A DNA stretch of 32,000 bases, from contig OY969425.1 of assembly GCA_963699255.1 (NCBI GenBank), positions 1,080,001 through 1,112,000 on the forward strand, read 5' to 3'. This DNA is from an uncultured bacterium (GTDB lineage: Bacteria; Margulisbacteria; WOR-1; CAVSGV01). The notes under the pieces were generated by a model. The model ran no database searches and was not told where the DNA came from. It saw nothing but the letters and a program-made list of their open reading frames with translations. The translations under genes and the position numbers were made by a program. The first letter of the stretch is position 1; each line of letters starts with the position of its first letter. Positions 1 through 19,877 of this stretch are shown here, one piece after another.

Positions 1-1
1 C

Positions 2-6000: not shown

Positions 6001-6217
6001 TAGGATATATGACATCACTGGAGCATTGGTTAAAGAACTTGACGGAACTACGAATCCCGAAGGAGCCAGTATTTGGAATAAATATAACGATGTTGAATGG
6101 GATGGACGCAACGGCAGAGGCGACTTAGTTCTTAACGGCATTTATCCGTTTGAGATAACCGTTAATTACGGTGATAAGTCCGTGACGGGAAGAGGAAATA
6201 TAGCAGTGCTAAAATGA
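2..6217 (+). CDS. Giant secreted surface/adhesin-like protein, 5'-partial. Contains multiple FlgD-Ig-like domains, a BNR/Asp-box propeller-like region and a C-terminal FlgD-Ig/T9SS-CTD-like sorting domain
   Basis: The 2044-aa ORF (83..6217) stays open in frame back to nt 2, so the true N-terminus lies outside the window. It has recurrent (F/I)(T/S)PNGDxxDD ... WDGKD ... CPDG(Q/K/E)Y ... A(A/S)DSAGN modules of FlgD-Ig type. An Asp-box KSDNGGTRW and repeated VWED(Y/T)R.G...IF motifs occur in the C-terminal third. The tail NWPNPFDPNKERTKIRYRL..VTIRIYDITGALVKEL..WDGRNGRGDLVLNGIY resembles T9SS/FlgD-type C-terminal domains. Confidence 0.85.
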   Translation, partial: YGTVVSNVISSQLQEAKGNSVSFSKDKLMGGGVFEPGEYSIRLKMVDEAGNEETLNKANFTIISGLSISNAVASPLIFTPNGDNHDDYVTFKYKVSGGVGDVTAKVKIKSLAGATVKTFTSQLASSGYDQEIWDGKDEHNNLCPDGQYQYEISAADSAGNQASAITGSLTLISKPTIVVYADPKTLSSSGNDMTIYYNINYQGQLITGNSQVTATIYDQSNTIVYYFSDTKGEGNYSNKWAGQNNQTGGIVPNGTYRLEVKSSDPTGTIYYYATDLVVGAPLQITGESASPAIFTPNGDNHDDNTTIGYVVSGGFGSVVSTVEIKTLSGTTVKTFTDSDVGTPVTCSFTWDGKNGSNNLCPDGKYQYEITAADSTGDLSAQITGEIVLAANPTITMSATPTTISPNSNASTIHCTINYGGLFSGNSQLTIEVFNGSGIKVYSLTGSKGEGSYSYLWGGENNQTSGYVPDGTYTLEVQATDPTGTIYSYTADLVVSAGLQVTGESAVPIIFSPNGDNHYDTTTISYFVSGGVGNGVSTVEIKSLAGTTVKVFSSPYSPGSNPSFTWDGKDISGSLCPDGEYTYVITASDSAGNSSPIVSGGIVLAANAAISMYADPKTLSPNGDGITNASTMYCVISYGGLISGDSQIAMDIFDHSGIKVYSLTDTKGEGSYSYAWGGVNNQAGVFVPDGTYTLKMQASDPTGTIYSYTTDLLVSAELKITGESAVPVIFTPNGDGHDDTTTISYLVSGGVSSVTATVEIKSLARTIVKSFTDTVHSTPSTINVTWDGNDGSGSMCPDGKYICEISALDSAGNVSSLTGGDITLVKSTTISLEAAPLKISPNGGGVDEYTVISYSIDYKGGLISGNSQIAINIYDKTGTKVYSFTDTKGEGNYSLNWGGLNNQIGGKVLDGTYTLEVQATDPTGTVYPFIADIIIDRGPPKITDNGISPTEPITPNGDRQQDDVTIKYQVTDVGNPISSIEVEIYNSAVTFDASTLVRRIIGSAGGDTLWDGRVDVTGGNGDKDGNGYADEGLYKYVIKASDIFGNTATLVSTNSIQVDKVYLSFGEILSDPSNPYFSPNGDSVKDSTVISFNLETTEEVHPYYLQSKGMKIAGMKILSSGYNVGKVTMKIKDMSGNTIRTLMDSVSREAGITYEVTWDGKDSSGIVVPDGSYTIEVKAVDMIGDPATNSIISGITSNCSQAVVDTVSPIAQITSPADGSWQKGIINIVGSASDANPMSYSLGYDGSSTNIGSGAGNKINEAIVSWDASAVNKTCTLELYAVDAAGNTAEAIRTFNVDNLPPQISNISIMSNGQQRSYFNPYLDGSISVECQIDDNSFNAGAGGYSVPCSTITIDSDVWNGATKIATLKSNQPVTSGNKYVSWTGLNDSSPSDYVNEGDYQIRLSVTDLAGNNTIVTRTVSLVDDQKITSREGGSYSHDPNLALSGTSLNLRFITGESWGQAQIKSDRLSVSGRDKCQQKWVGSVQCDKSQTVEVIDSYHVQTQYQDQIYCWNYLNNASGVNVWNNGHSHYTNSSATYNATVSKAMRCQTIFWLDSELMNPYGYGVGDADMTVIFQERKYNLNKTCNVTSLQALNNASSPIFEGDTYESFACGGATKHLVWASKFYTVAGNGPSGGGPYVYTNNYEIIYNKSVNGILNYDNNGNTYYPLEIKLTNKSAGDSINPAVATDSTTGNKVYVVWEDYRNGSGQIFINRSTTSGEVWAGDVPLTSETNCSTPSIATDSSGNTIYVAFAKQVNGHKELNVMKSDNGGTRWHGPVRITRYEFSTCEASKSSIVCDASGNAYVAWEDTRAGTSEIFFQKIPSNFAPFSSPGMTIMSMPQQPIVQAPITITSTSSTPELISPVDKATVKALRPTFKWYGVQNVTDYRIECATSSDESSLANSLDYFTATISDVSGAKPVCEFTQNEHFMGLDESTPSNPYWYWRVQTITSEASTSEVGSFRIELPTSLSGVTNWPNPFDPNKERTKIRYRLGREPNSVTIRIYDITGALVKELDGTTNPEGASIWNKYNDVEWDGRNGRGDLVLNGIYPFEITVNYGDKSVTGRGNIAVLK
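188..2810 (+). repeat. Four tandem ~650-660-bp (~220-aa) intragenic repeat units, each with two Ig-like modules
   Basis: Unit boundaries are marked by (L/S)(Q/K/S)I(T/S)G(E/L)SA.P.IF(T/S)PNGD at about nt 188, 845, 1493 and 2150, with a degenerate fifth boundary near 2810. Each unit ends with GEG(N/S)YS..W(A/G)G.NNQ.G..VPDGTY.LE(V/M)(K/Q)(S/A)(S/T)DPTGTIY. Confidence 0.85.
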
Positions 6218-7230
6218 AAAACATTCAACATCAAACAGCAAACTTCCAAATAATATCCGCAACCAAAAAACCAGCATTTGGGATCTGGATATTGATAATT
6301 GGGATTTGTTTTGGATTTTGTAGTTGGATGTTGGAAGTCCCATGCTTTGCCACTGACACCGGTCAAGCCGGTCTGGATATCGCAGTCCTTGAAGCCGGTG
6401 TTGGAGCCAGAGCTTTGGGAATGGGCGGCGCTTTTACAGCCGTGGCTGATAACGCCGACGCACCATTCTGGAACCCGGCGGGGCTAGCCCAAATAAACAA
6501 CAATGAAATAACGGCTATGCAGACAAAGTTGTCCACCGATGCTGATCATTATTATGTCAGCTATGTCACTCCCCTTTTGGGCGGAGGCTTAGGTATAAGC
6601 TGGATACAGGTGGGAATGAATTCTATTACCCAGACAGGGAATTCCACGAGCGAATACAACGAAGTGACCAATCTTGGCATATTCAGTTATTTCTCAAATG
6701 CCTATCTTCTCGCTTACGGAAGGAACATTACAGATAATTTAAGCTTCGGTATCACCGCCAAGTATCTCACATCTGACATGCCGGGGTTGGTATCTATCGA
6801 AGGTGCCAGCGCATACGGATATTCTATCACTCCTGGACTGCTCTACAAACCGACAAGAGAACTTTCAATCGGCCTCAAGATAGACGAACTTATCAATTAC
6901 CAGAAGTGGGGAACGGATGCAGAGGAAATAGTGCCGTCGATATCCAGGCTTGGAATATCTTATGCAACACGGGTCCCATTGCTCGGCAATCCGCTGTTGT
7001 TATCCGGGGATATAAGCCAGATAAATAAAGCCGGATATGTTCCTGAAGGAAGTGCTGGAGCCGAAGCTAAATTTGGACAGATCGCTTTTAGAATTGGATA
7101 TAGCGAACAATCAATGACCGGAGGGGCCGGTTTTGAAGCAGACCACATCAGTATAGATTATGCATATGTAACTCAAACCAGTTTGACGAAAGATAACGTG
7201 CATAGGGTCAGTTTGACCGGTCGGTGGTAG
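6214..7230 (+). CDS. PorV/PorQ-like outer-membrane beta-barrel protein
   Basis: The start ATG overlaps the stop of the giant gene (ATGA at 6214-6217). The N-terminal stretch is hydrophobic. The diagnostic motif GVGARALGMGGAFTAVADNADAPFWNPAGLA is present, followed by alternating beta-strand-like sequence to the C-terminus. Confidence 0.7.
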   Translation: MKNIQHQTANFQIISATKKPAFGIWILIIGICFGFCSWMLEVPCFATDTGQAGLDIAVLEAGVGARALGMGGAFTAVADNADAPFWNPAGLAQINNNEITAMQTKLSTDADHYYVSYVTPLLGGGLGISWIQVGMNSITQTGNSTSEYNEVTNLGIFSYFSNAYLLAYGRNITDNLSFGITAKYLTSDMPGLVSIEGASAYGYSITPGLLYKPTRELSIGLKIDELINYQKWGTDAEEIVPSISRLGISYATRVPLLGNPLLLSGDISQINKAGYVPEGSAGAEAKFGQIAFRIGYSEQSMTGGAGFEADHISIDYAYVTQTSLTKDNVHRVSLTGRW

Positions 7231-7260
7231 ATCGATCTCGATAGCAGATTGGGAGGGAAA

Positions 7261-8235
7261 ATGAAAATAACTTTCTTGACCATATTAATTATTGCAGTTT
7301 ACTGCTCGATCGTTTTTTCCATGGGAACTACGCCGCCGACTAGTGAAGTTGCTATTGTCCCTTCCGTTGCGTTCGTGAGATCGATAGGCTCCGCCGGTTC
7401 CGGGAACGGCCAATTCCTTTATACCCGTGATGTTTGTGTCGGGGCCTACGGCGACCTTTCAACCGGCCTTGGGAACATCTTTGTCGCTGATACGGGAAAT
7501 AACAGGATCCAGGTCTTTGACAGCGGCGGCGATTTTTTGTTCCAGTTCGGGAGCTTTGGAAGCGACATAGGAAAGTTCAACTCGCCGTCAAATGTCGTGG
7601 TCGATTTCAATTTCAGTATCTATGTTATGGACAGGGAGAACAGCAGAGTGCAGAAATTCGACATTAGAGGCAATTATTTATCCCAATTCGGCTCTTTTGG
7701 AACGGACTCAGGACAATTCAGTGACCCCTGCGGCTTGGCAGTTGATTCCTGGGGAAGGATATTTGTCGCAGACACCGGCAACAACAGAATACAAGAATTT
7801 GATTCATCTAGTTCTTTTCTGGCTTCAATAGGAGCGTTCGGTTGGGGTGATGGCTTCTTTGACACACCTCGTGATGTCGCAATAGATAAAGACAAGAATA
7901 TCTATGTTGCGGATACGAAGAACGACAGGGTCCAGAAACTTGATGAATTCGGGAAACCGATACTCTCTTTTGGGAAATCCGGCAGCGGTGACGGCGAGTT
8001 CCACAGTCCCTCAGGGATCGCAGTCGATGATAAATTCATATGTGTGAGTGACAGCGGGAACAACAGGGTGCAGGTATTTAACAAGAGTGGAGTGTTTCTC
8101 GCGAAATTCGGATCGATAGGCTCAAAGAACGGTGAGTTCAACGATCCAACCGGCATATCGATCGGCAAACCCGGTCAGCTTTTTATTGCTGACACAAATA
8201 ACCATCGCGTGCAGGAATTTAAAATAAGTTTCTGA
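7261..8235 (+). CDS. Secreted NHL-repeat (six-bladed beta-propeller) protein
   Basis: There are six repeats of (F/V)ADTGNNR(I/V)Q(V/E/K)F(D/N)..G.F...FGS.GS..G.F..P.G(I/L/V)(A/V)VD. I prefer ATG 7261 (MKITFLTILIIAVY signal peptide) with RBS GGGAGGG at 7251-7257 over the TTG at 7249 in the ORF track. Confidence 0.85.
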   Translation: MKITFLTILIIAVYCSIVFSMGTTPPTSEVAIVPSVAFVRSIGSAGSGNGQFLYTRDVCVGAYGDLSTGLGNIFVADTGNNRIQVFDSGGDFLFQFGSFGSDIGKFNSPSNVVVDFNFSIYVMDRENSRVQKFDIRGNYLSQFGSFGTDSGQFSDPCGLAVDSWGRIFVADTGNNRIQEFDSSSSFLASIGAFGWGDGFFDTPRDVAIDKDKNIYVADTKNDRVQKLDEFGKPILSFGKSGSGDGEFHSPSGIAVDDKFICVSDSGNNRVQVFNKSGVFLAKFGSIGSKNGEFNDPTGISIGKPGQLFIADTNNHRVQEFKISF

Positions 8236-8309
8236 CCCGAAATTAGAACTTGCCAGTATCCATCGGGCCGGTTCCGCATCTGCAATTCGGATCCAAAGGA
8301 CCATACGAT

Positions 8310-11300
8310 ATGGGTGTAACTAATAATGGATGCAATGCGGGATACAATATGGCGCCGAAGGTGTTCCCCTCGGGATATTTTCTTTTTGTTCTGTTAGCGA
8401 TTATTGTGATATTTTTCATCAATTCTTTCGCCTTTGCCATTTCAAAACCCAGTTCCGAGTTCCGCCATTTAAAAGGTGCAAGTACTGAGGCTTACGACAT
8501 CCTTCTTAATCCGTATCCGATACCCATTGGAAAAGATGTCGGGATCAGGGTTTCCGTCCCGCACGATCCACAAAAGGTAGTTTTCGTTTTTGATAAGAAT
8601 GCCAAATACACGCTCGGCAAGGTTGGGAATTACTGGAGAGGCATCATAAGATTGCCAGATAACCATGCGGAAGGATGGAATCTTTCTTTTGTCTATATCA
8701 AATACAAAAGATCAGATATCGATCGTGCGGCAGCGCAAAAGTTGCTGACGTTCTTTAAAAAGCTGTTCGCCAGTGTCAGGCTGACTAATAAATACAGCGA
8801 TTATATAATGTTCGAGGGCAAGATATGGATTAGAGCATACAGAGTGCCTGAGAACCAATTGATAAGCATTAAGTCTAAACCTGCGACTTCCGTTGAAGCG
8901 ATCTCAACACCTGAAGTTGTGCCCGTTATTATGACGCCTTCCGTTGAATCGGTTTTAACATCAGAAGCCATACCTTTTAAGGTTGTAACGTCCCTAGAAT
9001 CTAATCCGATCATTACGGCCAAACCTTCCATTGAAGCAGCTACAACTCTTGAAGCAGCCCCTTTAACGGTTCCGGTTTCTACCGGATCGCTTTTTTCGCC
9101 TGAAGCTACAATAACATCAGAAGCGGGATCGACCGGAGAGGCCTTTTGTTTTAAGATAAAAGGGACAAAATCGATCAATTTTGTTAGCAGGTCAATAGAG
9201 GGCAGCAAGGAAGGCTTTGTGCCGGGGCTGACAAGGGATGAGGCTCTTAGGATAAACATTTCCGGTGCCGCCAAGGATGGGACTGAGGTGGACGCGAGTT
9301 TCATTTCCACATCAACATCTGGCACGACAGCCTTAACGCAGAACGATGACAAAATATCGATCCTGGTAAAAAGAGCGAGCACCGAAGCCTACCTTGGGGA
9401 TTTCATAGGCGATTTTAACGATACCGAATTCGCGCGGCTTAATAAGAGCTTATCCGGCGTCAAGATTTCCGGTGATTATGCTACATGGGGTTTCAAGGCG
9501 CTCTATGCGACTCCTCGCGGTGACGCGAAGTATTACAGAGCCTACGGCAATGGAACGCAGGGGCCTTATTCCCTTGGCACTTCGCCGGTCGTAGTGGACA
9601 GCGATAAAGTTTATCTTGACGGGGCTCAGCAGAGACGCGGCAGCGATTACACGATCGACTATCAGGCAGGGACGATCACGTTCAAGAGCGCAGTGGTCAT
9701 AAGCACTTCGATAATCGAAGCTTATTACGACTGGAGCGAGACCCTTTATCAGCACTCGACCATCGGATTAAGATACAGGCAGACCGTCAATGATGACCTT
9801 AAGCTTGGGTTCACGTATATTAACGATTCGGATAGTACTTATAAAGCTTCGGAGATAAGAGACTCGCTTTCTGCGACAATTGAGCCGACAAGCCACTACA
9901 TCGTCGGCATCGACGGTTCAACAAAACTATTCGGCAACACGCTTATAAACTCCGAGCTCGCGTATTCGAATATAGACCTTAATATCCTTGAGCCTAACAA
10001 GACAATGGAGATAGGCAAGGCGTTCAAAATGGACACGACTACCGCGCAGGGGCCATTCACTTTGTTAACTAACTATAAAAGAGTTGGGGCGGGATTCAGC
10101 GCTATCGGAGACGCCGCGCCGCAGCAGGATGTGGATCAGTATGGCGGACTGTTCAGTTTCAGGCCGAGCAATATATATTATTTGGAAACGAATTATGCCT
10201 ACGATAAGTATAAACTCCTGGGAACACAATATTTGACAACCGACAAAAGCTTTAAGTCCAAATTCACTCCAGAGGATATCCCTTCTTTGAATTATGTTTA
10301 CAGGGAGACTGAGGATTCGAACGACCCAGTGACGGCTGCGCAGATAGACCGTTTAACGACACAGAATAATGTGGATTCAAGCTATAAATACGCGGGATTT
10401 TTGGTCTCGACACTGCAAGGAGGGATAGAGGAGAGAAGGAACAGGGAGCCTTCACTGGAAGTGACGACTTACAGGACCGTTAATTTCGGCACAGCCACTT
10501 ACGGCCTTGATAGGATATCCGCCTCCGGGAACATCGAATTAAAGGATACACAACTCCCGGATAAAACGAATCCTTTGACCAAGACATACAGCGCACTTGT
10601 TTCTGCAACGCCGACCAAAGACTATTTCGGCTCTCTTTCGCTCCAGATAATCGACGATTCCATCCAGGGAACAACAAATGTTACGGATCTTAATTACAAA
10701 GCAACTCCCGTGAATAATTTCTCAACTGACGGAAAATACACGATATCTTCCGTCCGGGAGGATTTTAACGGGACGTCGGAAGCGGTTTCAAAGCAAACAG
10801 GGTCCTTCCGATTTGATTACAGGCCGATCGATCCCATAAAGCTTAGGTATTATTACAAGCCGAATTTTACCCGGGTAGAGAGCTCCAATGCTTTAAGTTT
10901 CAACGATGAGGTTAATCAAGCCGAAATATATTATGCACCGCTCAGGGAGCTTTCAACGGGACTTGTTTATAAGACCGAAAATCTGATGAACCTAGATAGG
11001 ACCGACCCGGATTTTAAAAGAGAAGCCAACCGGCAGAATACGTATGACACGACCCTGCTCATTAATTCAGCTCCTTACAGGTTCTTATCGCTTGAACTCA
11101 GCTGCCAGAATACAGACCTTTTCCTTACTGAGCAGACCACTCCGGGGGCAACCGCTTATGACAGTTCGATCGGGAACACAAAGAAGTATGATATTAGCGC
11201 GAAGACATCGCTTTCGGAGCAATTCTCGATCGATTCGAGTTATTCTTACCAGAATCAGAACCAGTCGAGCACCAGCACAGCAGAAGAAATCGATGCACTT

Positions 11301-11657
11301 ACCCAGACGATAAATCTAAAAGGATTGTGGAACATTGATCAGTCCTGGTCGGTGTTTGCCAGTTATTCTTATTCGGAAATGGACAACCGCCTTTTAACGG
11401 ATGATGACATGACATATACTGTGTCGCCGGGAATGGGGGCCACATATAAAATAGGGGATATTCTAAGGGTTGACGCGCAATACACCAGATCCCAGTCTTT
11501 TGCCGCTTCAACCGCTCAGGTAGATACTTATTCGCTCAATACCAAATATGATCCCAATCAATACGTTCATATAAATATTCGTGGAACGCGGGAGATAAGC
11601 GTTGACCCGGATTACAAGTCTACTGAAATAATGGGAAGCTTTGATATCGTGTTGTGA
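8310..11657 (+). CDS. Large predicted outer-membrane protein: signal peptide, Ser/Thr/Pro/Glu-rich linker and a long beta-barrel-like C-terminal region
   Basis: The ORF is 8250..11657. Likely starts are ATG 8310 or ATG 8349 (MAPKVFPSGYFLFVLLAIIVIFFINSFAFA signal peptide). A low-complexity repeat TSVEAISTPEVVPVIMTPSVESVLTSEA... is followed by about 750 aa of alternating Y/S/T/N/D-rich strands typical of OM barrels. No specific family was recognised. Confidence 0.6.
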   Translation: MGVTNNGCNAGYNMAPKVFPSGYFLFVLLAIIVIFFINSFAFAISKPSSEFRHLKGASTEAYDILLNPYPIPIGKDVGIRVSVPHDPQKVVFVFDKNAKYTLGKVGNYWRGIIRLPDNHAEGWNLSFVYIKYKRSDIDRAAAQKLLTFFKKLFASVRLTNKYSDYIMFEGKIWIRAYRVPENQLISIKSKPATSVEAISTPEVVPVIMTPSVESVLTSEAIPFKVVTSLESNPIITAKPSIEAATTLEAAPLTVPVSTGSLFSPEATITSEAGSTGEAFCFKIKGTKSINFVSRSIEGSKEGFVPGLTRDEALRINISGAAKDGTEVDASFISTSTSGTTALTQNDDKISILVKRASTEAYLGDFIGDFNDTEFARLNKSLSGVKISGDYATWGFKALYATPRGDAKYYRAYGNGTQGPYSLGTSPVVVDSDKVYLDGAQQRRGSDYTIDYQAGTITFKSAVVISTSIIEAYYDWSETLYQHSTIGLRYRQTVNDDLKLGFTYINDSDSTYKASEIRDSLSATIEPTSHYIVGIDGSTKLFGNTLINSELAYSNIDLNILEPNKTMEIGKAFKMDTTTAQGPFTLLTNYKRVGAGFSAIGDAAPQQDVDQYGGLFSFRPSNIYYLETNYAYDKYKLLGTQYLTTDKSFKSKFTPEDIPSLNYVYRETEDSNDPVTAAQIDRLTTQNNVDSSYKYAGFLVSTLQGGIEERRNREPSLEVTTYRTVNFGTATYGLDRISASGNIELKDTQLPDKTNPLTKTYSALVSATPTKDYFGSLSLQIIDDSIQGTTNVTDLNYKATPVNNFSTDGKYTISSVREDFNGTSEAVSKQTGSFRFDYRPIDPIKLRYYYKPNFTRVESSNALSFNDEVNQAEIYYAPLRELSTGLVYKTENLMNLDRTDPDFKREANRQNTYDTTLLINSAPYRFLSLELSCQNTDLFLTEQTTPGATAYDSSIGNTKKYDISAKTSLSEQFSIDSSYSYQNQNQSSTSTAEEIDALTQTINLKGLWNIDQSWSVFASYSYSEMDNRLLTDDDMTYTVSPGMGATYKIGDILRVDAQYTRSQSFAASTAQVDTYSLNTKYDPNQYVHINIRGTREISVDPDYKSTEIMGSFDIVL

Positions 11658-11718
11658 TAAAAGGCTCCCATAAAGTTAGTCTAACTGGAAAATGGTAGAA
11701 ATATTTTGCTCCACAGGC

Positions 11719-12015
11719 TTTCCAGTATAGCATTTTACCGCCTTTCCCTGTAAAGCGCGCTCACGTTAGGACTTCGTATAAAGCTCTCTGTCCCGAAAAA
11801 AGTCCTCATCCTTGCGGATTTTTTCGGGTATTTGTTCGCGCCCTCCTCCAGTCGCCCGACTAAAGTCGAGGCTCCTTCCGGCCCTCCGCTCCTTACGCTC
11901 ATTCACCATAATTAGATAATAGGTAGGGTTCATTCGCTCCTCTCGCTTCGGGTGACAGGGGCGGTAAAATGCTGTTCCTTCCTGTGTGTTTTCATTTCAC
12001 AGGGAGGTGGTTTTC
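11719..12015 (+). ncRNA. Conserved ~295-nt structured non-coding leader upstream of the DprA-like gene (copy 1). Could be a cis-RNA or a DNA element such as an origin
   Basis: It aligns with 25297..25591: ttccagtatagca..., gacttcgtataaagc, cctcatccttgcgga, ctcctccagtcgccc, gaggctccttccggccctccgct, ctcgcttcgggtgacagg. Single-base indels break any common reading frame. Two hairpins show compensatory changes between copies (11792..11828 and 11854..11872). Confidence 0.5.
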
Positions 12016-12551
12016 ATGTCTCGTTTAGCAGGTGTCATTGGTTCCCGTTCATTGCCCGTTTCTTTTGCCCCGCTTGTCTCCCACATTGTTTCCCTTCTCC
12101 TTTCCCGTGGCTACGGCATTGCCTCTGGCGGCGCTGTCGGCGCTGATTCATTTGCTCTTGCAGCGGTTATTCATCGGGGGGTGGCTTCACGCTGTGTCAT
12201 TTACTCCGCTTGGTCTTCTGCTTCGGGCTTTCCTTCCTCTGTTCAGCCTCAGGTTTCTCGTTTCCTTGCTTCTGGTGGTCAGGTTATATGGGGTTCCTGT
12301 CCGGTTGGTGCTTTGCGTCAGGAGGCGGTTTCTGCTCTTCTCGGCAGGAACAGGCGTCTTGTTTCTGCTTCCTCAGTCATTGTTGCCTTCCTACACACCT
12401 ACACAGCCAGTCTCGTGGCTCTCTTTACACGGTCCGTCAGGCTGTTGAGCAGGGTGTTCCGGTCATCGTGTTCCTTTGCGGCGGCGGTGCGTCTTTGCCC
12501 GCTGATCTTGCTTCCAGGTGTTTAGTGTTTACAGAAAAGGAGGTGGTTTAG
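12016..12551 (+). pseudogene. Minimal DprA-like (DNA_processg_A Rossmann core) gene, disrupted by an 8-bp tandem duplication
   Basis: RBS GGGAGGTGG precedes ATG 12016. MSRLAGVIGSRSLP...IASGGAVGADSFALAAV...LLGRNRRLVSASSVIVAFLH then shifts frame to SQSRGSLYTVRQAVEQGVPVIVFLC...EKEVV*. The duplication is cctacaca x2 at 12390..12405. Removing one copy restores AFLHSQSRG, colinear with AFIHGQSRG in the intact copy 25592..26116. Confidence 0.75.
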
Positions 12552-12552
12552 T

Positions 12553-12729
12553 ATGTCAGCTTCAGTTTTGTCTCCATGCATATGCTGTCAGGATCGATTT
12601 CCTGATATGGCTTGCTGTTCAAGAGAAAAGTCTCGCTGTTATAGGTTTCTTGAATATATCGAGAGTCTTAGTAAAGCAAGGGCGCATAGCATCCTGATAA
12701 AAGAGCTCATAAGCTTGATTAACAAATAA
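12553..12729 (+). CDS. Cys-rich 58-aa protein conserved in both elements (absent from the ORF track because it is under 60 aa)
   Basis: The product is MSASVLSPCICCQDRFPDMACCSREKSRCYRFLEYIESLSKARAHSILIKELISLINK. It aligns with 26118..26309 (PCCYC...YAC..EK..CFKFLNYIQKLNRMRAQKVLIKEL). The same coupling sequence AAGGAGGTGGTTTAGTATG spans the DprA-like stop in both copies. Confidence 0.7.
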   Translation: MSASVLSPCICCQDRFPDMACCSREKSRCYRFLEYIESLSKARAHSILIKELISLINK

Positions 12730-12744
12730 AAAGGAGAGAATAAA

Positions 12745-13269
12745 ATGGGTGAGTACATTAAGAATAGAAAGACTGGAGAAGAAATTAAGATTGGAGTATT
12801 AGACCGCTGCTTTTTCAGCCGTAAACAAGTTGAAGATTGGCACAATGATCCAAATTGGGTGGGTTGGTATGCGGGAAAAGAAGAGAAGGGTACGCTTGAA
12901 AATTATCTCAAGGATCCCAATTCCCTTTATGAAATGATCGATGGGTTGCATCATAAAGAATTTGCCTTCAAATTCCAATTACCAGATACTGAAATTATTG
13001 AGCACAGTAATGTATATGTATGGAAAAAGGGTCAAAGAGGCAATGGCTATCAGTATAAGGTCGGATGCCAATTTGAGAAACAGAAAGAGGTTTGGGCAGT
13101 AATTGTCGGTGAACGGTTTAACGAGAAAGGAGAAGCAAGGACGATCTTTGCCTGCGATTGCTGTGAGGTTTTGTTTAGCCTGCCGCAAGATCTAATAGAT
13201 CAATCCTTGGATGATATAGATAAATCCTCAAGAGATTATTTTCAAGGAATTCTTAAAGGAAGAAAGTAA
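12745..13269 (+). CDS. Hypothetical protein (element cargo, copy 1 only)
   Basis: The ORF is 174 aa with RBS AAAGGAGAG seven nt upstream. No family was recognised. It contains a CDCC motif near the C-terminus. Confidence 0.6.
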   Translation: MGEYIKNRKTGEEIKIGVLDRCFFSRKQVEDWHNDPNWVGWYAGKEEKGTLENYLKDPNSLYEMIDGLHHKEFAFKFQLPDTEIIEHSNVYVWKKGQRGNGYQYKVGCQFEKQKEVWAVIVGERFNEKGEARTIFACDCCEVLFSLPQDLIDQSLDDIDKSSRDYFQGILKGRK

Positions 13270-13279
13270 GGTGAAAATT

Positions 13280-13453
13280 ATGAGAATTTGTAAAGTATGC
13301 GGCTCGCTCCTAGTTCCATGCAACGAAGGCATAGATCATATCGGTTTACAGCCATATACACTTCCAAGAACTGTATATATCTGCCAGAGTTGCCTTACAG
13401 CGATACAAAATATCCTCGAATACGGTTTTTCCTCTCAATATATCAACGCTTAA
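13280..13453 (+). CDS. Small zinc-ribbon-like protein (CxxC...CxxC)
   Basis: The product is MRICKVCGSLLVPC...YICQSCLTAIQ. ATG 13280 is preceded by TAAGGTGA. The ORF track starts it at GTG 13271. It is followed directly by a terminator. Confidence 0.5.
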   Translation: MRICKVCGSLLVPCNEGIDHIGLQPYTLPRTVYICQSCLTAIQNILEYGFSSQYINA

Positions 13454-13459
13454 TCTCCA

Positions 13460-13492
13460 AGGCCTGATCCATCATCGGAACAGGCCTTTTTT
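13460..13492 (+). terminator. Rho-independent terminator ending the DprA-like/cargo operon of copy 1
   Basis: The structure is AGGCCTG-(14 nt)-CAGGCCT followed by TTTTTT. Confidence 0.7.
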
Positions 13493-14743
13493 GGTCGCGT
13501 TAACTTTCTTTCCCTTCCCATTCAAAACAAATCATTTCCGCGCCTCTCCAAGCACGAACACAAAAAAGACGACGCAGGCAGATACAGCTGGCTTGAAATG
13601 AAGACAAAGTCAACAGTTCTTGTAGTTAGCGATGAATTGCTGACAACCAAGGACATCTTTAGCAAAGCATGGGGAAACTAGGTCAAATGGTCCAAGCGAA
13701 AACACACGATGAAACCTGCTCCCTGCTTGCCTGCCTTTGTAGGGATTGCCTCTGGCTGGTATGATGGTATAAGTCTTGGTGTAGGCGGGTCTTGATAGAA
13801 AGCGATCAGCTGAAGCTGCTTTTTTTGCCTGCTTGTCTTTGGCCTGATAACCATTCATTGTTCCGCTGCCTTACTGTTGAAATGTAAAATATGTGCGGGA
13901 TTCCGACTTGTCTGCCGACAGGCAGGCTTTACGTCGGGAGTCATCGCCTGTCCCCCTCTTTACGAACTGTAAGGCTGGCGGAAGCCTCGGCAAAAGCGGA
14001 TGTCATTGTTAATTGTGTAACTGTCTCAATCTGAGTCTGAGAATGAAGCAAAACAAATGTTACATTTCAGCCAACGTGAAATAGCATGGATAATCGCCTT
14101 GCCCCGTTTTCAGTAGTGGGAAATGCTCACTGTTCTTTTTCAAAGCCGGTAGCTCCCTGCCAGCCTGCCCCGCCGCAGGCGGTAGCTTGTTCTGCCTACC
14201 CACCTTTGACGAGATCGGCCTGTCCGCCTCTCTACGAGCTGTATGGCTGGCGGAAGTATCGGGATAATGAACTTGCTTACCACACCACAGGGGGTAGCTT
14301 GCATCAACCGGAGCATCGGGGCGATGAGTTTACTTGTCCCGCCTGTTCGCCTCTGGAGAAAGCGAAGCCGTAAGCCGAGGACTCCGACCAAGCTCAGTCG
14401 AGGTCTTGAAGGAGTAGGTTTTGCAGCAATAGTTTCAAACTCCCAGCGTGTCTAAAACTCTTTGGGTCAGGTTCTTCTGTCTTTTGTTCGTATTCATATC
14501 TAACATCATTGATCCTTTGTCTTTCTCTACTGCTAATGAACAACATCTATGTATCAACTGTTAAAATGAATATCCTTGTGTACCGAAGTAACAAATAAAA
14601 TCCCAATTTGGCCGGTCTGGCCGCGCGCCTGCGCTCGTGCGTATGTGCCTGTGTACGCGTATCGTATATAGAGGGATACTGTGAAGTTCCCCGGCTAAGT
14701 CACAGTATCGGGAGATCATTCTGAACGCCGCAAATTCAGCTTC

Positions 14744-14772
14744 TTGCACCCGTGAATTGTATTAGGTAGAAT
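14744..14772 (+). promoter_or_regulatory. Sigma70-type promoter TTGCAC-17-TAGAAT, homologous to the tRNA-Pro promoter
   Basis: cTTGCACccgtgaattgtattaggTAGAAT compared with cTTGCACccgtgaatagtgttgggTATAAT (minus strand, 21156..21184). Confidence 0.55.
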
Positions 14773-14778
14773 AATGCT

Positions 14779-14861
14779 AACAGTTCGACCTGAAGAAGGT
14801 TGCGCTACCAAGAAATTGGAGCAAACCGCTGATTTTCCTAGATCGGCGGTTTTTCTTTTTT
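14779..14861 (+). ncRNA. Candidate small transcript: tRNA-3'-end-like stub fused to a copy of the tRNA-Glu trailer and terminator
   Basis: It lies downstream of promoter 14744..14772. The sequence is ...cagTTCGAcctgaagaaggttgcGCTACCA, then the trailer, then the terminator CCGCTGAT-N8-ATCGGCGG-TTTTTCTTTTTT (14826..14861). From GCTACCA onward it is identical to the sequence following tRNA-Glu. Confidence 0.3.
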
Positions 14862-14956
14862 GGGAAGGTGTTCGGCGGTCGGCGTTTGGGCGGCGGCAAA
14901 CGCCGACCGCCGGAAAAGAACCTCCGTTCAGATTTTCCGCGCCAAAATCACTATAA
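14804..14956. repeat. IR1-L: left copy of a perfect 153-bp inverted repeat
   Basis: It is the reverse complement of 16581..16733, checked base by base with 153/153 matches. Confidence 0.95.
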
Positions 14957-15027
14957 CTAATTACTATTGTTGTTTTTCTTTTTGTAAATTGGCGCCCAAT
15001 ACTCAATATCCAAATGAATCCGGCCTT

Positions 15028-15234
15028 TTAAGATAAGCCCAAAAGCTTGTCTACTGAAACCCCCAAACCCACAGCTATCGCCTTCACCATCTCGATTCCC
15101 GGATTTTTCACCATCCCTTTTTCAACTCTTAACAAGTGATGTGAAGTAAACTTACCGCCACATTTAAAAGCTAATTTCTCTCGCGACAGACCTGTTTTTT
15201 TTCGATATTTCTCGATATTTTCACCTAAGTGCAT
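15028..15234 (-). CDS. Xre-family helix-turn-helix transcriptional regulator
   Basis: The 68-aa product contains LGENIEKYRKKTGLSREKLAFKCG...LLRVEKG..NPGIEMVKAIAVGLGVSVDKLL (HTH_3 pattern). It is divergent from the recombinase gene. Confidence 0.8.
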   Translation of the reverse strand: MHLGENIEKYRKKTGLSREKLAFKCGGKFTSHHLLRVEKGMVKNPGIEMVKAIAVGLGVSVDKLLGLS

Positions 15235-15271
15235 AACGGATAGATTATAACATAATTGTCATAATATTTAT

Positions 15272-15300
15272 TTGACATGGTGGCATATATGTATTAACAT
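15272..15300 (+). promoter_or_regulatory. Promoter TTGACA-17-TAACAT for recombinase 1
   Basis: The sequence is TTGACAtggtggcatatatgtatTAACAT, followed by RBS GGAGGG and ATG 15325. Confidence 0.55.
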
Positions 15301-15324
15301 ACACCCCACTATAGGAGGGCCAAT

Positions 15325-16767
15325 ATGAAAATAGCTATATATACGCGTGTTTCAACCGACACCCAGGCCGACAAAGAATTCAATTCCTGTGAAGCTCAGG
15401 AGCAGAAGATAAGGTCATTTGTCTTAAGTCAGGAAAATATGATGGTTTATAAAGTCTATTCCGACCAGGGTTATACAGGGGCTAACACTGACCGCCCCGC
15501 TCTAACGGAAATGCTTAACGACATACAGAATAGCAAGGTCGATCTTGTCGCTGCCTATAAAATTGACCGTCTCACTAGGTCGCCGAAAGACTTTTATCAT
15601 TTAATTGATATATTTGAACAACACAAGGTCAATTTTATATCCGTTACTGAACGATTCGATACCTCCACCCCATCGGGACGGCTTCTCAGGAATATCATGC
15701 TTACTTTCGCGCAATTCGAAAGAGAGCTTATCAGTGAAAGAACAAGAGATAAAATGCACGAATGCGCGAAAAAAGGCCTCTGGACTTGCGGCCATACGCC
15801 ATTTGGTTATAAAAGGCTAGAAAAGAAACTGATCATTGAGCCGGTAGAAGCAAAGATTGTAAGGGCTATCTTTGAAATCTTTATCTCTACAGGTTCAACT
15901 GCTGAGGTTTATAAGAAACTGAAAGAGAAAAGTTTGTTTAACAGGCGCGGATTGCCTATATCTCAAGAAGAAATCGGGAAAATACTCAAACGGATTGTAT
16001 ATATCGGTAAAATCGAATTTAAAGGCAATATTTATCAGGGAATTCATGAGCCGATAATTTCTGCTGAGTTACTTGAGGCTGCTCAGGGACTTCGCAAAGA
16101 AAGGGCAAAGAAAAGTAAAGTATTCAATTTCTCTCTTTTCCCCGGAATAGTTCTCTGTAAGGAATGCGGCTCAGTAATGAGCGCATCTTTCTCTAATAAG
16201 TTTAAAGATGCCCGCCGCATTAGATATTTTTATTATCGATGCTCAAGCGTTACAAAAAGGGACATTTCTTTTTGCGCCACCAGATATGTCAGTGCCGACC
16301 GCCTTGACTCGTTCATCATCGATAGTCTTGATAAGATATCGAAAAATCGGCAGTATCTTGAGAGTTTGATCTTCACGCTCAACTATCAGCAGGATGGGTG
16401 CCAAAAGGGAATCGAACCGGTGGGGTCGGCTTCATCCTATTCTCCTGAAAGGTTGAAAGATATCCTTCGAGATATTACTATGGTCCCGAAGTTTAAGTCC
16501 AAAACTGAAAAGGAAATTATCATTCAGAAGCATATTAAACAGATCAATTATTCAAAGGAAGCTATTGAAGTCGTGATAAATTATAGTGATTTTGGCGCGG
16601 AAAATCTGAACGGAGGTTCTTTTCCGGCGGTCGGCGTTTGCCGCCGCCCAAACGCCGACCGCCGAACACCTTCCCAAAAAAGAAAAACCGCCGATCTAGG
16701 AAAATCAGCGGTTTGCTCCAATTTCTTGGTAGCCCCACGGGGAATCGAACCCCGATCGTCAGCTTGA
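15325..16767 (+). CDS. Large serine recombinase (resolvase catalytic domain, recombinase domain and zinc ribbon)
   Basis: The N-terminus is MKIAIYTRVSTDTQ (catalytic Ser), followed by YKIDRLTRS and LRNIMLTFAQFERELISERT. A CKECGS...YYRCS zinc ribbon is present. It is about 70-75% identical by eye to 26312..27790 over the N-terminal domain. The last ~62 codons are encoded by IR1-R, and the ORF stops inside antisense tRNA-Glu (...APRGIEPRSSA). Confidence 0.9.
   Translation: MKIAIYTRVSTDTQADKEFNSCEAQEQKIRSFVLSQENMMVYKVYSDQGYTGANTDRPALTEMLNDIQNSKVDLVAAYKIDRLTRSPKDFYHLIDIFEQHKVNFISVTERFDTSTPSGRLLRNIMLTFAQFERELISERTRDKMHECAKKGLWTCGHTPFGYKRLEKKLIIEPVEAKIVRAIFEIFISTGSTAEVYKKLKEKSLFNRRGLPISQEEIGKILKRIVYIGKIEFKGNIYQGIHEPIISAELLEAAQGLRKERAKKSKVFNFSLFPGIVLCKECGSVMSASFSNKFKDARRIRYFYYRCSSVTKRDISFCATRYVSADRLDSFIIDSLDKISKNRQYLESLIFTLNYQQDGCQKGIEPVGSASSYSPERLKDILRDITMVPKFKSKTEKEIIIQKHIKQINYSKEAIEVVINYSDFGAENLNGGSFPAVGVCRRPNADRRTPSQKRKTADLGKSAVCSNFLVAPRGIEPRSSA
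16581..16733. repeat. IR1-R: right copy of the 153-bp inverted repeat, comprising the last 7 nt of tRNA-Glu plus its 3' trailer
   Basis: See IR1-L. On the tRNA strand it contains the tRNA terminator (16676..16711) and a 15-bp perfect hairpin GGCGGTCGGCGTTTG-N8-CAAACGCCGACCGCC. Confidence 0.95.
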
Positions 16768-16801
16768 AAAGCTGATGTCCTAACCGTTAGACGATGGGGC
16801 C
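16727..16801 (-). tRNA. tRNA-Glu (anticodon UUC), CCA encoded
   Basis: The sequence is GGCCCCATCGTCTAACGGTTAGGACATCAGCTTTTCAAGCTGACGATCGGGGTTCGATTCCCCGTGGGGCTACCA. It forms a cloverleaf with a 7-bp acceptor stem, TTCGATT T-loop and anticodon loop TTTTCAA. Confidence 0.9.
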
Positions 16802-18731: not shown

Positions 18732-18737
18732 TTGCGC

Positions 18738-18830
18738 GTCGATAAGGGGAGCCCATGAATGTGGGGCTGAGAACTCCGAATTGATCGGAGGACCCGTTGA
18801 ACTTGATCAGGTTAAAACCTGCGAAAGGAG
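18738..18830 (+). promoter_or_regulatory. TPP (THI-box) riboswitch, probably acting on translation
   Basis: The sequence AGGGGAGCC...GGGGCTGAGA...ACCCGTTGAACTTGATCAGGTTAAAACCTGCGAAAGGAG matches the conserved THI-box cores (GGGG.GC, CUGAGA, ACCC..GAACcUGAUC.GG.UAA.aCC.GCG.AGG). The RBS AAGGAG lies in the 3' closing strand, 7 nt before ATG 18837. Confidence 0.85.
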
Positions 18831-18836
18831 AAAATA

Positions 18837-19877
18837 ATGAACACAGACAAACTGCCCGAACTCGGAAAGATCCATCCTGACTTCTTCGACCGCGTGATAT
18901 ATCCCCGCTTGGGGGCTGATGATAAGAACATAGTGATCGGGCCCAGGCACGGCGTTGATTACGGGGTATTAAAGGTCGGCGACAAATATCTGGCGATATC
19001 CACAGACCCGTTCTTCATAGTCCCTTCCTTCGGATTCTCAAAAGCCGCGTGGTTCGGATTACATATAATACTATGCGATGTCGCGGTATCGGGACTTAAA
19101 CCAAGATACCTGACGATCGACCTCAACCTGCCTCCCGAGATGACCGAAGTTCAGCTGGAAGAAATGTGGGAGACCGTACATTCGGAATCGAAAAAATACG
19201 GCATAAGCGTGATCACAGGCCACACCGCGCGCTATACCGGATGTAACTATCCCATGGTCGGCGGAGCGACCGCCATCGCTATCGGCGGTGAAAAAGACCT
19301 GAGAGGCCCTCAAAAGGTGAAAGCCGGGGACAAGATCATCATAACGAAAGGCCCCGCAATAGAGACGACCGGCCTGCTTGCAGTCCTGTTCCCTCAAAAA
19401 TTCATTGAGGCCGGCGGCAAAGCTTTCCAGAAAGAGGCCGCGGATATTTTTGCCCAGATGTCGGTGATGGATGACTGCGCCATCGCGCGTGAATTTCCCG
19501 GGACCCGCGTTATGCACGACGCGACGGAGTGCGGGATATGGGGCGGACTTTACGAGATGGCGAAGGCGGGGAAATATGGAATAAGGGTTGAGGAGGAATT
19601 GATACCTATTCAGCCCGTAATCAAGAAGACCGCTGAACTTTTCAAGTTCGATCCTTTCTGCTCGATAAGCGAAGGAACTCTCATTGCGATCGTTGACGGG
19701 AAGGAAGCCGATGAACTCGTTGCTGCGTTTAAGAGAAACGGGATATTAAGCGCGGTCGTCGGCGATGTTCTGGCAGGGAACAAGGGGATCAAGATAGTCA
19801 GCGAAGGAAAAGAAAGAACGCTCGAACACCCTAAGATCGATCCTTACTGGAAATTAGCCGCGGAGTTTTCCAAGTGA
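18837..19877 (+). CDS. AIR-synthase-related (PurM/HypE/ThiL superfamily) protein under TPP riboswitch control
   Basis: The 346-aa product has a PurM-like N-domain pattern (GVDYGVLKVGDKYLAISTDPFFI, LHIILCDVAVSGLKPRYL, SVITGHTARY) and a C-domain pattern (MHDATECGIWGGLYE). Confidence 0.7.
   Translation: MNTDKLPELGKIHPDFFDRVIYPRLGADDKNIVIGPRHGVDYGVLKVGDKYLAISTDPFFIVPSFGFSKAAWFGLHIILCDVAVSGLKPRYLTIDLNLPPEMTEVQLEEMWETVHSESKKYGISVITGHTARYTGCNYPMVGGATAIAIGGEKDLRGPQKVKAGDKIIITKGPAIETTGLLAVLFPQKFIEAGGKAFQKEAADIFAQMSVMDDCAIAREFPGTRVMHDATECGIWGGLYEMAKAGKYGIRVEEELIPIQPVIKKTAELFKFDPFCSISEGTLIAIVDGKEADELVAAFKRNGILSAVVGDVLAGNKGIKIVSEGKERTLEHPKIDPYWKLAAEFSK

Follow-up and report, generated by a model that had tools for sequence, protein, structure and literature searches.

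What is the DNA that adjoins the tRNA-Glu gene in this stretch of a margulisbacterial genome, and why does it carry such long inverted repeats? The stretch analysed here, called the window below, is 32,000 nucleotides (nt) long and corresponds to positions 1080001-1112000 of the genome of an uncultured bacterium of the WOR-1 lineage, assembled as a single contig of 1.77 Mb. At window positions 11719-16801, an operon headed by a DprA-like gene is followed by DNA poor in open reading frames (ORFs), a divergent xre regulator gene, a large serine recombinase gene and the tRNA gene. The original prediction, all of whose listed features are indeed present where it placed them, took this locus for an element of 5 kb, an enlarged and partly decayed copy of the compact element found at a tRNA-Met gene. 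We call the tRNA-Glu locus copy 1, the tRNA-Met element copy 2 and a further island at a tRNA-Gln gene copy 3. Our analysis leads, with good confidence, to a different picture: positions 11719-16801 are very probably the right-hand 5 kb or so, the recombination end, of a 42,662-bp mobile island with a serine recombinase, integrated at tRNA-Glu.

The extent of the island follows from relatives in which the site is empty. In two genomes of the same family (G001 and G004), a 100% identical tRNA-Glu gene is followed, after 8 nt, by the ATG of an orthologous methyltransferase gene. In the present genome this gene, on the same strand, lies 42.7 kb from tRNA-Glu, and we therefore conclude that 42,662 bp have been inserted. 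The island spans genome positions 1054069-1096730, with its left end 25.9 kb upstream of the window start, so that the proposed element of 5 kb has to be redrawn. The insertion immediately follows the last base of tRNA-Glu(UUC), its discriminator base, and the original trailer and the methyltransferase gene are found beyond the island. The tRNA-Glu gene is 100% identical to those of four related genomes (G001-G004), and the sequences downstream differ. With a GC content of 0.419, the island lies below the 0.475 of the genome. A precise insertion, recognized from empty sites in relatives, is a mark of islands in tRNA genes that this locus shows; a direct repeat of the tRNA 3' fragment at the far end is one that it lacks, the direct repeat being a 4-nt core only and the long repeats being inverted. 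In another relative (G002, contig C8, 221101-222110), tRNA-Glu(UUC) and the methyltransferase gene are divergent rather than in tandem, a local rearrangement at the site that the island uses here.

We denote by Y the 1.3-kb repeat arm, by I the shorter arm, by R the sum of Y and I, by T the old trailer, and by A and B the two segments of the island. The integrated order is T-Y'-A-Y/I-B-I'-tRNA, where primes mark inverted copies; A comprises 38 kb of cargo, with the DprA-like operon as its last part, and B (1.6 kb) comprises xre and the recombinase gene. In the window, the parts that bear on integration through an attachment (att) site are the following:

13516-14803, plus strand: Y arm of the internal attP repeat (R1), an inverted match to the left end of the island
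14744-14749 (TTGCAC) and 14767-14772 (TAGAAT), 17-nt spacer, plus strand: outward promoter P_Y, a sequence motif
14783-14788, plus strand: P-arm motif GTTCGA, at the end of Y
14804-14807, plus strand: core GCTA of the internal attP-like Y/I junction, common to three junctions
14804-14964, plus strand: left copy of the I arm, a perfect inverted copy of 16573-16733
16573-16733, minus strand: right copy of the I arm, ending in attL, with the core reading TAGC at 16730-16733 on the plus strand
16727-16801, minus strand: tRNA-Glu(UUC), the integration target, found by ARAGORN and Rfam; the gene proper ends at 16730, and the CCA at 16727-16729 comes from the island

The ORF-poor DNA, which had been regarded as a spacer of about 1.3 kb, looks functional: in a BLAST search of the genome, window positions 13516-14807 (1,292 nt) are 100% identical, in inverted orientation, to genome positions 1055360-1054069, 38 kb upstream and outside the window. 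The second repeat pair (14799-14964 and 16573-16738), perfect over about 157 nt from the core inward, encloses only xre and the recombinase, as had been recognized. It had been described as a captured tRNA trailer. The I arm contains the CCA, a terminator with a 13-bp stem, a second hairpin and the P'-arm motif GCAAACC. It is absent from the empty sites, and is therefore island DNA rather than host trailer; the true trailer stands at the opposite island end, where the left Y copy is followed by a trailer typical of this genome, with a hairpin and AATGACAAATG-type repeats, and then by the methyltransferase gene.

It could still be argued that the locus is a duplicate of the compact tRNA-Met element, about 5 kb long, expanded and decaying, with a captured trailer as its inverted repeat and filler between its halves. 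The leader, DprA-like gene, micro-ORF and recombinase are homologous to those of copy 2, and the alignment shows that this similarity is significant beyond the recombinase: the stretch from the leader through the DprA-like gene into the start of the micro-ORF can be aligned over 848 nt, with 73% identity. The DprA-like gene is also frameshifted. However, the supposed trailer is missing from empty sites and the real one lies 42.7 kb away, the supposed filler is a perfect repeat arm, recombinase, xre and both repeats are intact, and the same large layout recurs in four islands. We consider this explanation very improbable.

The island thus has three junctions: tRNA/I, which is attL, Y/T, which is attR, and an internal, inverted and intact Y/I. 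GCTA is all that the three have in common. Since recombination of attL with attR would recreate the internal Y/I sequence exactly, Y/I should be attP, and the long inverted repeats mean, to judge from these sequences, that the island holds its own attachment site a second time, in intact form. Target-site duplications of the kind expected of a transposon or insertion sequence (IS) were not found at the junctions, and the repeat ends form att sites of the serine-integrase type. The arms are 94-100% identical within most elements, while the elements differ by 20-50% among themselves and the arms of sister elements are at most 80% identical. The arms thus evolve in concert, by recombination or by being copied.

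Conservation among sister islands covers the inner 365 nt of Y, which are 78-80% identical to the Y arms of copy 3 and G002. A sigma-70-type promoter motif like P_Y, directed across the junction, is present in every Y. A frame of 24 codons in the conserved part of Y is common to copies 1 and 3 and shortened in G002. An Rfam search with the Y arm and the operon leader returned no family, the sole match being a small RNA at chance level (E 0.25). Y also contains two direct repeats of 50 nt (window 13946-13995 and 14218-14267, 84-87% identical) that include TACGAACTG; as this resembles the P'-arm motif of the family, they may be fossil att half-sites.

To compare the geometry of the sites, 31 distinct elements were aligned by their attP-like and attL sequences. 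Wherever the alignment is clean, the distance to the junction is 4 nt greater for the motif GTTYG in the end of Y than for the T-loop GTTCG of the tRNA gene, the pairs of distances being 17/13, 16/12, 15/11, 14/10 and 13/9. An inverted CRAAC motif is found 17-22 nt into I, and the P and P' motifs are always 34-35 nt apart. In the LI integrase, the zinc-ribbon motif is likewise shifted inward in attB relative to attP, by 5 bp (PMC3783163). A short shared core (GCTA) and an outer motif nearer the centre in attB than in attP are both features of large serine recombinases. Because the 4-nt shift matches the attP/attB architecture of serine integrases (PMC3783163), the geometry would identify Y/I as a true attP and, by analogy, the T-loop as the host motif that is recognized. 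Closely related elements at tRNA-Met, tRNA-Ile and tRNA-Lys have an identical P arm, GGGTCGAG, and differ in the core alone (CCA versus GCA), so that retargeting may need little beyond a change of core.

These sites also bear on the idea that two independent units, transposon-like and bounded by terminal inverted repeats (Y...Y around A, I...I around B), happen to lie side by side, or that the arrangement is an artefact of assembly. Each segment is indeed bounded by long inverted repeats, and many metagenome contigs break exactly at the arms. Yet the end of Y and the start of I form one dyad-symmetric site of constant spacing and always abut, target-site duplications are lacking, no transposase occurs in segment A of minimal elements, and the layout appears, at different tRNA genes, in a genome assembled as one contig, in further genomes and in independent metagenomes. 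There is little chance, in our estimate, that either version is correct.

The island type is not confined to tRNA-Glu. Copy 3, at tRNA-Gln(CUG), occupies genome positions 868564-888958 (20.4 kb), with a Y pair of 914 nt (99.2% identical) and an I pair of 173-197 nt. At the left of segment A, copies 1 and 3 have in common a tyrosine recombinase-AAA fusion, a YdjM-family membrane protein and Poly_export (84-89% nucleotide identity), and at its right the DprA-micro-ORF-zinc-ribbon operon (89%), beyond which the inner part of Y is 80% identical. The DprA-like gene of copy 3 is intact, and the order of Y/I, xre and recombinase is as in copy 1. In the islands of G002 (at tRNA-Arg) and G001, the two inverted Y arms are separated by 17 and 14 kb, respectively. 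A chance juxtaposition, which had been named as a possible objection, is refuted by the recurrence of the same layout at tRNA-Gln here and in islands of two relatives; copy 1 is thus a member of a conserved type of large island and not a small element in decay. Copy 2 follows the same junction logic. In the empty site of G001, tRNA-Met is directly followed by tRNA-Pro, and here 6.6 kb lie between them; this insert has a Y pair of 47-56 nt around a low-GC cassette and an I pair of 212 nt around an operon of the DprA-like gene and recombinase.

Relatives of the recombinase are present in 22 of 146 genomes of the phylum, all in one class and often in several copies. In the 20 loci fetched, the 3' end of the recombinase gene overlaps an antisense tRNA gene (Met, Val, Ile, Lys, Leu, Ala, Glu, Asn, Arg, Tyr or Gln); an I pair was found in 15 of these 20 related-genome loci, and at least 7 have an adjacent Y pair as well, around 2.6-6.5 kb of cargo. 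A metagenome scan added 80 loci, many with both repeat pairs. Forty-odd relatives at tRNA or transfer-messenger RNA (tmRNA) genes show the double repeat wherever the flanks are readable. In minimal metagenome elements, B consists of nothing but the recombinase, and A of 1-2 kb of unrelated cargo; xre was not found in B in the few minimal elements inspected. A DprA-like gene was found in none of the metagenome loci except two contigs matching genome loci already in the set, and the leader and micro-ORF are missing from more than 40 metagenomic relatives. The core proposed originally (leader, DprA-like gene, micro-ORF, recombinase and trailer repeat) does not survive this comparison. In the sequences compared, the constant parts are therefore the recombinase, two inverted attP-bearing copies of R and the outward promoter in Y.

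Five metagenomic relatives (L089, L109, L110, L117 and L148) lie at the 3' end of a tmRNA gene, called by ARAGORN at L089 and recognized by eye at the other four; L109, L110, L117 and L148 have the same motifs at the Y/I junction. Two orthologous elements at tRNA-Lys, L035 (G012) and L034 (G016), come from two genomes of one genus. The I arms of the G012 element are 78% identical to each other, and its internal I copy resembles the I arm of another element, which suggests an exchange of the internal repeat between elements.

Segment B contains three features:

15028-15234, minus strand: Xre-type helix-turn-helix regulator, 68 amino acids (aa), divergent from the recombinase; PF01381 (HTH_3), E 3.6e-8
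15272-15300, plus strand: sigma-70-like promoter before the recombinase gene, TTGACA-17-TAACAT, 10/12 matches, a consensus match only
15325-16767, plus strand: large serine recombinase, 480 aa; PF00239, PF07508 and PF13408

The divergent regulator and the separate promoter had both been proposed from the sequence alone, and both proposals are borne out. At its N-terminus the recombinase matches the catalytic Resolvase domain (PF00239) with E 1.4e-39 over positions 1-144 of 145, with YTRVSTD and its nucleophilic serine S10 invariant in 8 family members, and it has the C-terminal domains of a large serine recombinase: Recombinase (PF07508, E 6e-13) and Zn_ribbon_recom (PF13408, E 9e-10). The nearest NCBIfam model is CcrB (E 8e-57), at 193 bits against a cut-off of 900. 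The copy 1 and copy 2 genes align over 533 nt at 71%, and the proteins are 59% identical. Between copies 1 and 3, xre and the recombinase gene are 70% identical over the first 0.7 kb, and identity is 50% at the protein level. Homologues of xre are found in copy 3 and in an element of G015.

The reading frame of the recombinase passes through the I arm and the att core, and ends within the antisense tRNA-Glu gene. In the integrated copy 1, its tail reads ...FLVAPRGIEPRSSA; across the Y/I junction it would read ...FLVAQPSSGRTVSIILPN.... This is a property of the family: in 44 of 45 loci the frame remains open for 100-280 nt past a conserved ...YSKE.IEV core, through I and the att core, and the stop codon lies outside the element, inside or beyond the tRNA or tmRNA gene.

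The recombinase most similar to that of copy 1 (71% identity) is found at L042 (G015, contig C4), at tRNA-Glu(CUC) and with xre present. No I pair is detectable at L042, where a pair of IS3-family transposase genes is inserted just upstream of xre; this insertion has probably displaced the left I arm. A fourth, distant serine recombinase of the present genome (1585233-1586763, 32% identity) overlaps an antisense tRNA-Glu(CUC) gene, and no inverted copy of its 3' region was found anywhere in the genome.

From the boundaries, junctions, repeats, site geometry and recurrence we infer the following route. The large serine recombinase would join the attP of the island (end of Y/start of I) to an attB formed by the 3' end of the tRNA gene and T, which would yield attL (tRNA/I) and attR (Y/T). 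It would read the universal T-loop GTTCG as its outer, zinc-ribbon motif, and this would explain the relatives at more than 15 tRNA genes and at tmRNA genes. The island would hold R (about 1.45 kb) twice, in inverted orientation, one copy being split by integration into the island ends and the other remaining intact between A and B; the two adjacent pairs of long inverted repeats would therefore result. The simplest source would be a circle in which two unique segments lie between two inverted copies of R. The I arm could give the tRNA gene a replacement terminator and, in copy 1, an encoded CCA, and P_Y in the Y arm could drive the host genes severed from the tRNA promoter. We also considered hairpin or single-strand fold-back and replicative routes to the duplication; these are speculative, and none yields the observed order from a circle with a single attP.

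Several observations weigh against this account. On the 5' side of tRNA-Glu there is no synteny with either G001 or G002, where the orthologues of the neighbouring 255-aa gene are not beside tRNA-Glu, and the insertion is therefore anchored solely by the adjacency of tRNA and methyltransferase genes. The B' arm of attB has a weak counterpart of the motif. No circle or excision product was observed, and metagenome or viral contigs ending at the arms look like assembly breakage. No directionality factor was recognized and no candidate for one is conserved across the family, but such factors have no common signature. Finally, equivalent copies of R predict that the recombinase should face away from the tRNA gene in about half of the elements, and across assemblies the count is about 43 in the standard orientation to 2 flipped (L040 and L149). 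This skew suggests either a preference for the R copy at the 3' end of the recombinase gene or selection against a gene downstream of the tRNA promoter.

The two flipped loci raise the question whether the arms define invertible segments. The recombinase might flip B, and perhaps A, between Y/I and tRNA/I, and so switch its own expression or C-terminal tail, which would be the reason for the duplicate site. The crossover points coincide with the outer I-arm ends, an arrangement also known from the C segment of phage P1, in which the sites are at the outer ends of repeats of 0.6 kb. At L040 and L149, B is reversed (tRNA, then I, then the recombinase), the near-identity of the arms within elements amounts to concerted evolution, and inversion would change the tail from ...VAPRGIEPRSSA to ...VAQPSSGRTV.... 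On the other hand, Y/I has the geometry of attP and tRNA/I that of attL, and serine integrases are reported to be limited to attP x attB, or to attL x attR with a directionality factor (PMC3783163). Inversion would leave both junctions unchanged, with the same promoter-terminator layout on both flanks and no obvious difference between an on and an off state; the orientation skew also speaks against it, and RecA-type recombination between the arms would account for rare flips. We regard programmed inversion as unlikely, although less so than a decayed duplicate or two neighbouring units.

The internal attP could conceivably have one of two roles. One possibility is that it keeps P_Y, with attP as an operator, before the stop-less recombinase gene, so that expression and tail would report whether the element is integrated or free. 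Alternatively, the second site could allow the enzyme to reverse or invert without a separate directionality factor. A broader proposition, that the inverted att duplication is an obligatory and selected trait of a widespread, undescribed group of serine-integrase islands that recognize the universal T-loop and integrate next to the 3' end of any tRNA or tmRNA gene, is one that we put forward tentatively, as somewhat doubtful.

The remaining features of the window part of the island belong to segment A:

1-11718, no strand assigned: cargo of segment A, continuing upstream beyond the window to genome position 1055361
11719-12015, plus strand: non-coding leader of the DprA-like operon, which aligns with the leaders of copies 2 and 3
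12016-12525, plus strand: DprA-like gene, a pseudogene with an 8-nt insertion (ORF from 11986); PF02481, E 4.6e-7
12553-12729, plus strand: Cys-rich micro-ORF, 58 aa, homologous to the micro-ORFs of copies 2 and 3
12745-13269, plus strand: ORF of 174 aa, unique to copy 1, in a lower-GC insert
13271-13453, plus strand: CxxC..CxxC zinc-ribbon ORF, 60 aa, with a closely similar 60-aa ORF in copy 3
13458-13495, plus strand: intrinsic terminator of the operon, a hairpin (-18.4 kcal/mol) followed by a T run

The leader is 85-96% identical to the leaders of copies 2 and 3 and to a fragment at genome position 1068217. This fragment (1068217-1068360, in segment A outside the window) is a truncated leader copy of 144 nt, 96.5% identical to the leader of copy 3 and followed by unrelated sequence; it may be what is left of an earlier element, or may serve as a portable promoter module. 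The frameshift suspected in the DprA-like gene was traced to an 8-nt insertion, ACACACCT, at about 12393-12400, relative to copies 2 and 3. Beyond it, the homologous C-terminus (SQSRGSLYTVRQAVEQG...) is still intact in another frame, as judged by the intact copy 3 gene, and the break is therefore recent. The coding strand contains 9% adenine. The gene is DprA-like only: the copy 1 product has no intact frame and reaches 29.7 bits with PF02481 (cut-off 29.6), and the intact protein of copy 2 scores 43.6 bits against a TIGR00732 cut-off of 191. The operon has its own terminator, as predicted. Of the two ORFs that it was thought to have gained, the 174-aa ORF is indeed an addition, since in copy 3 the micro-ORF is directly followed by the zinc-ribbon ORF; the latter is part of the backbone, being present in copy 3 and 76% identical to an ORF of the G002 island. 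Neither the micro-ORF nor the two ORFs that follow it matched a family in searches of Pfam, PHROGs and NCBIfam. The DprA-like operon is a lineage-specific accessory module, the first gene of which is dead in copy 1.

The cargo of segment A includes the tyrosine recombinase-AAA fusion, YdjM, Poly_export, an M78 peptidase and Beta_protein. The fusion (genome 1055524-1056999, 491 aa) combines a tyrosine-recombinase catalytic domain (PF00589), an AAA ATPase and a C-terminal membrane segment. It stands beside the left Y arm in all four large islands (also genome 869500-871114, and contigs C3 of both G002 and G001), and its protein is 85-93% identical in G002 and G001, being far better conserved than the serine recombinases. 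The cargo in genome 1060496-1066940 and window 1-11657 includes the genes of the M78 (IrrE-type) peptidase (PF06114) and Beta_protein (PF14350). In these same intervals we recognized, by eye only, a putative methyltransferase-restriction enzyme fusion of 1,028 aa, a putative histidine kinase/response regulator pair, and an ORF of 3,552 aa with NHL-repeat-like and outer-membrane-like neighbouring ORFs. Outside the island, the window contains a TPP riboswitch (18735-18846; 57.1 bits, above the gathering score) upstream of an ORF of 346 aa (18837-19877).

How does the island compare with known systems? Like the LI/A118, Bxb1, phiC31 and SPbeta serine integrases, its recombinase combines resolvase, recombinase and zinc-ribbon domains, with a short core and a dyad-symmetric attP of about 45 bp. 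In contrast to these systems, the target is the extreme 3' end of tRNA or tmRNA genes, a second, inverted and intact attP is present, the frame runs without a stop across the att site, and the directionality factor has no recognized counterpart. The SCCmec recombinases CcrA/CcrB provide the best NCBIfam match (CcrB) and likewise place an island with cargo behind a conserved housekeeping gene, at its 3' end; here, however, the score falls well short of the CcrB cut-off, only one recombinase gene is present, and the target is a tRNA gene, not rlmH. The yeast 2-micron plasmid and the invertible segments of P1 and Mu resemble the island in layout only, with two unique segments between site-carrying inverted repeats; in those systems inversion by Flp, a tyrosine recombinase, or by small serine invertases has been demonstrated, whereas here the rules of serine integrases argue against inversion. 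The tyrosine-integrase islands at tRNA and tmRNA genes catalogued with Islander (PMC4383910) have the same type of target, an adjoining integrase gene, variable defence and surface cargo, lower GC content and empty sites in relatives. They differ in the recombinase, which here is a serine recombinase, and in the crossover, which here is at the discriminator base, with no tRNA fragment duplicated, 3-6 nt shared, and flanking repeats that are long and inverted instead of direct. In SSV1-type archaeal integrases, the gene of which contains attP (PMC8371274), the recombinase frame also spans the att site and integration changes the product; those enzymes are tyrosine recombinases with a gene split mid-way, whereas here the last 10-30 codons change. 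Tycheposons of Prochlorococcus, 27 of 937 of which encode a large serine recombinase (10.1101/2020.12.28.424599), are also small cargo elements at tRNA genes. An inverted attP duplication is not described there, and tycheposons often carry replication genes, of which none was seen here. Full-text searches of the literature gave no description of serine-integrase islands with an internal inverted attP.

What had seemed a decayed copy of 5 kb becomes the end of a 42.7-kb island with defence and giant surface-protein genes, which changes the annotation of a quarter of the window. Integration into tRNA genes has been regarded as the province of tyrosine integrases (PMC4383910). The present family of serine integrases would target tRNA genes via the T-loop, and it appears to switch targets by changing a core of 3-4 nt only. 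The retention of an inverted attP together with a stop-less frame is not predicted by current models of serine integrases. As these enzymes are used as tools for genome engineering, a family aimed at a motif found in every tRNA gene would be of interest to recombinase specialists.

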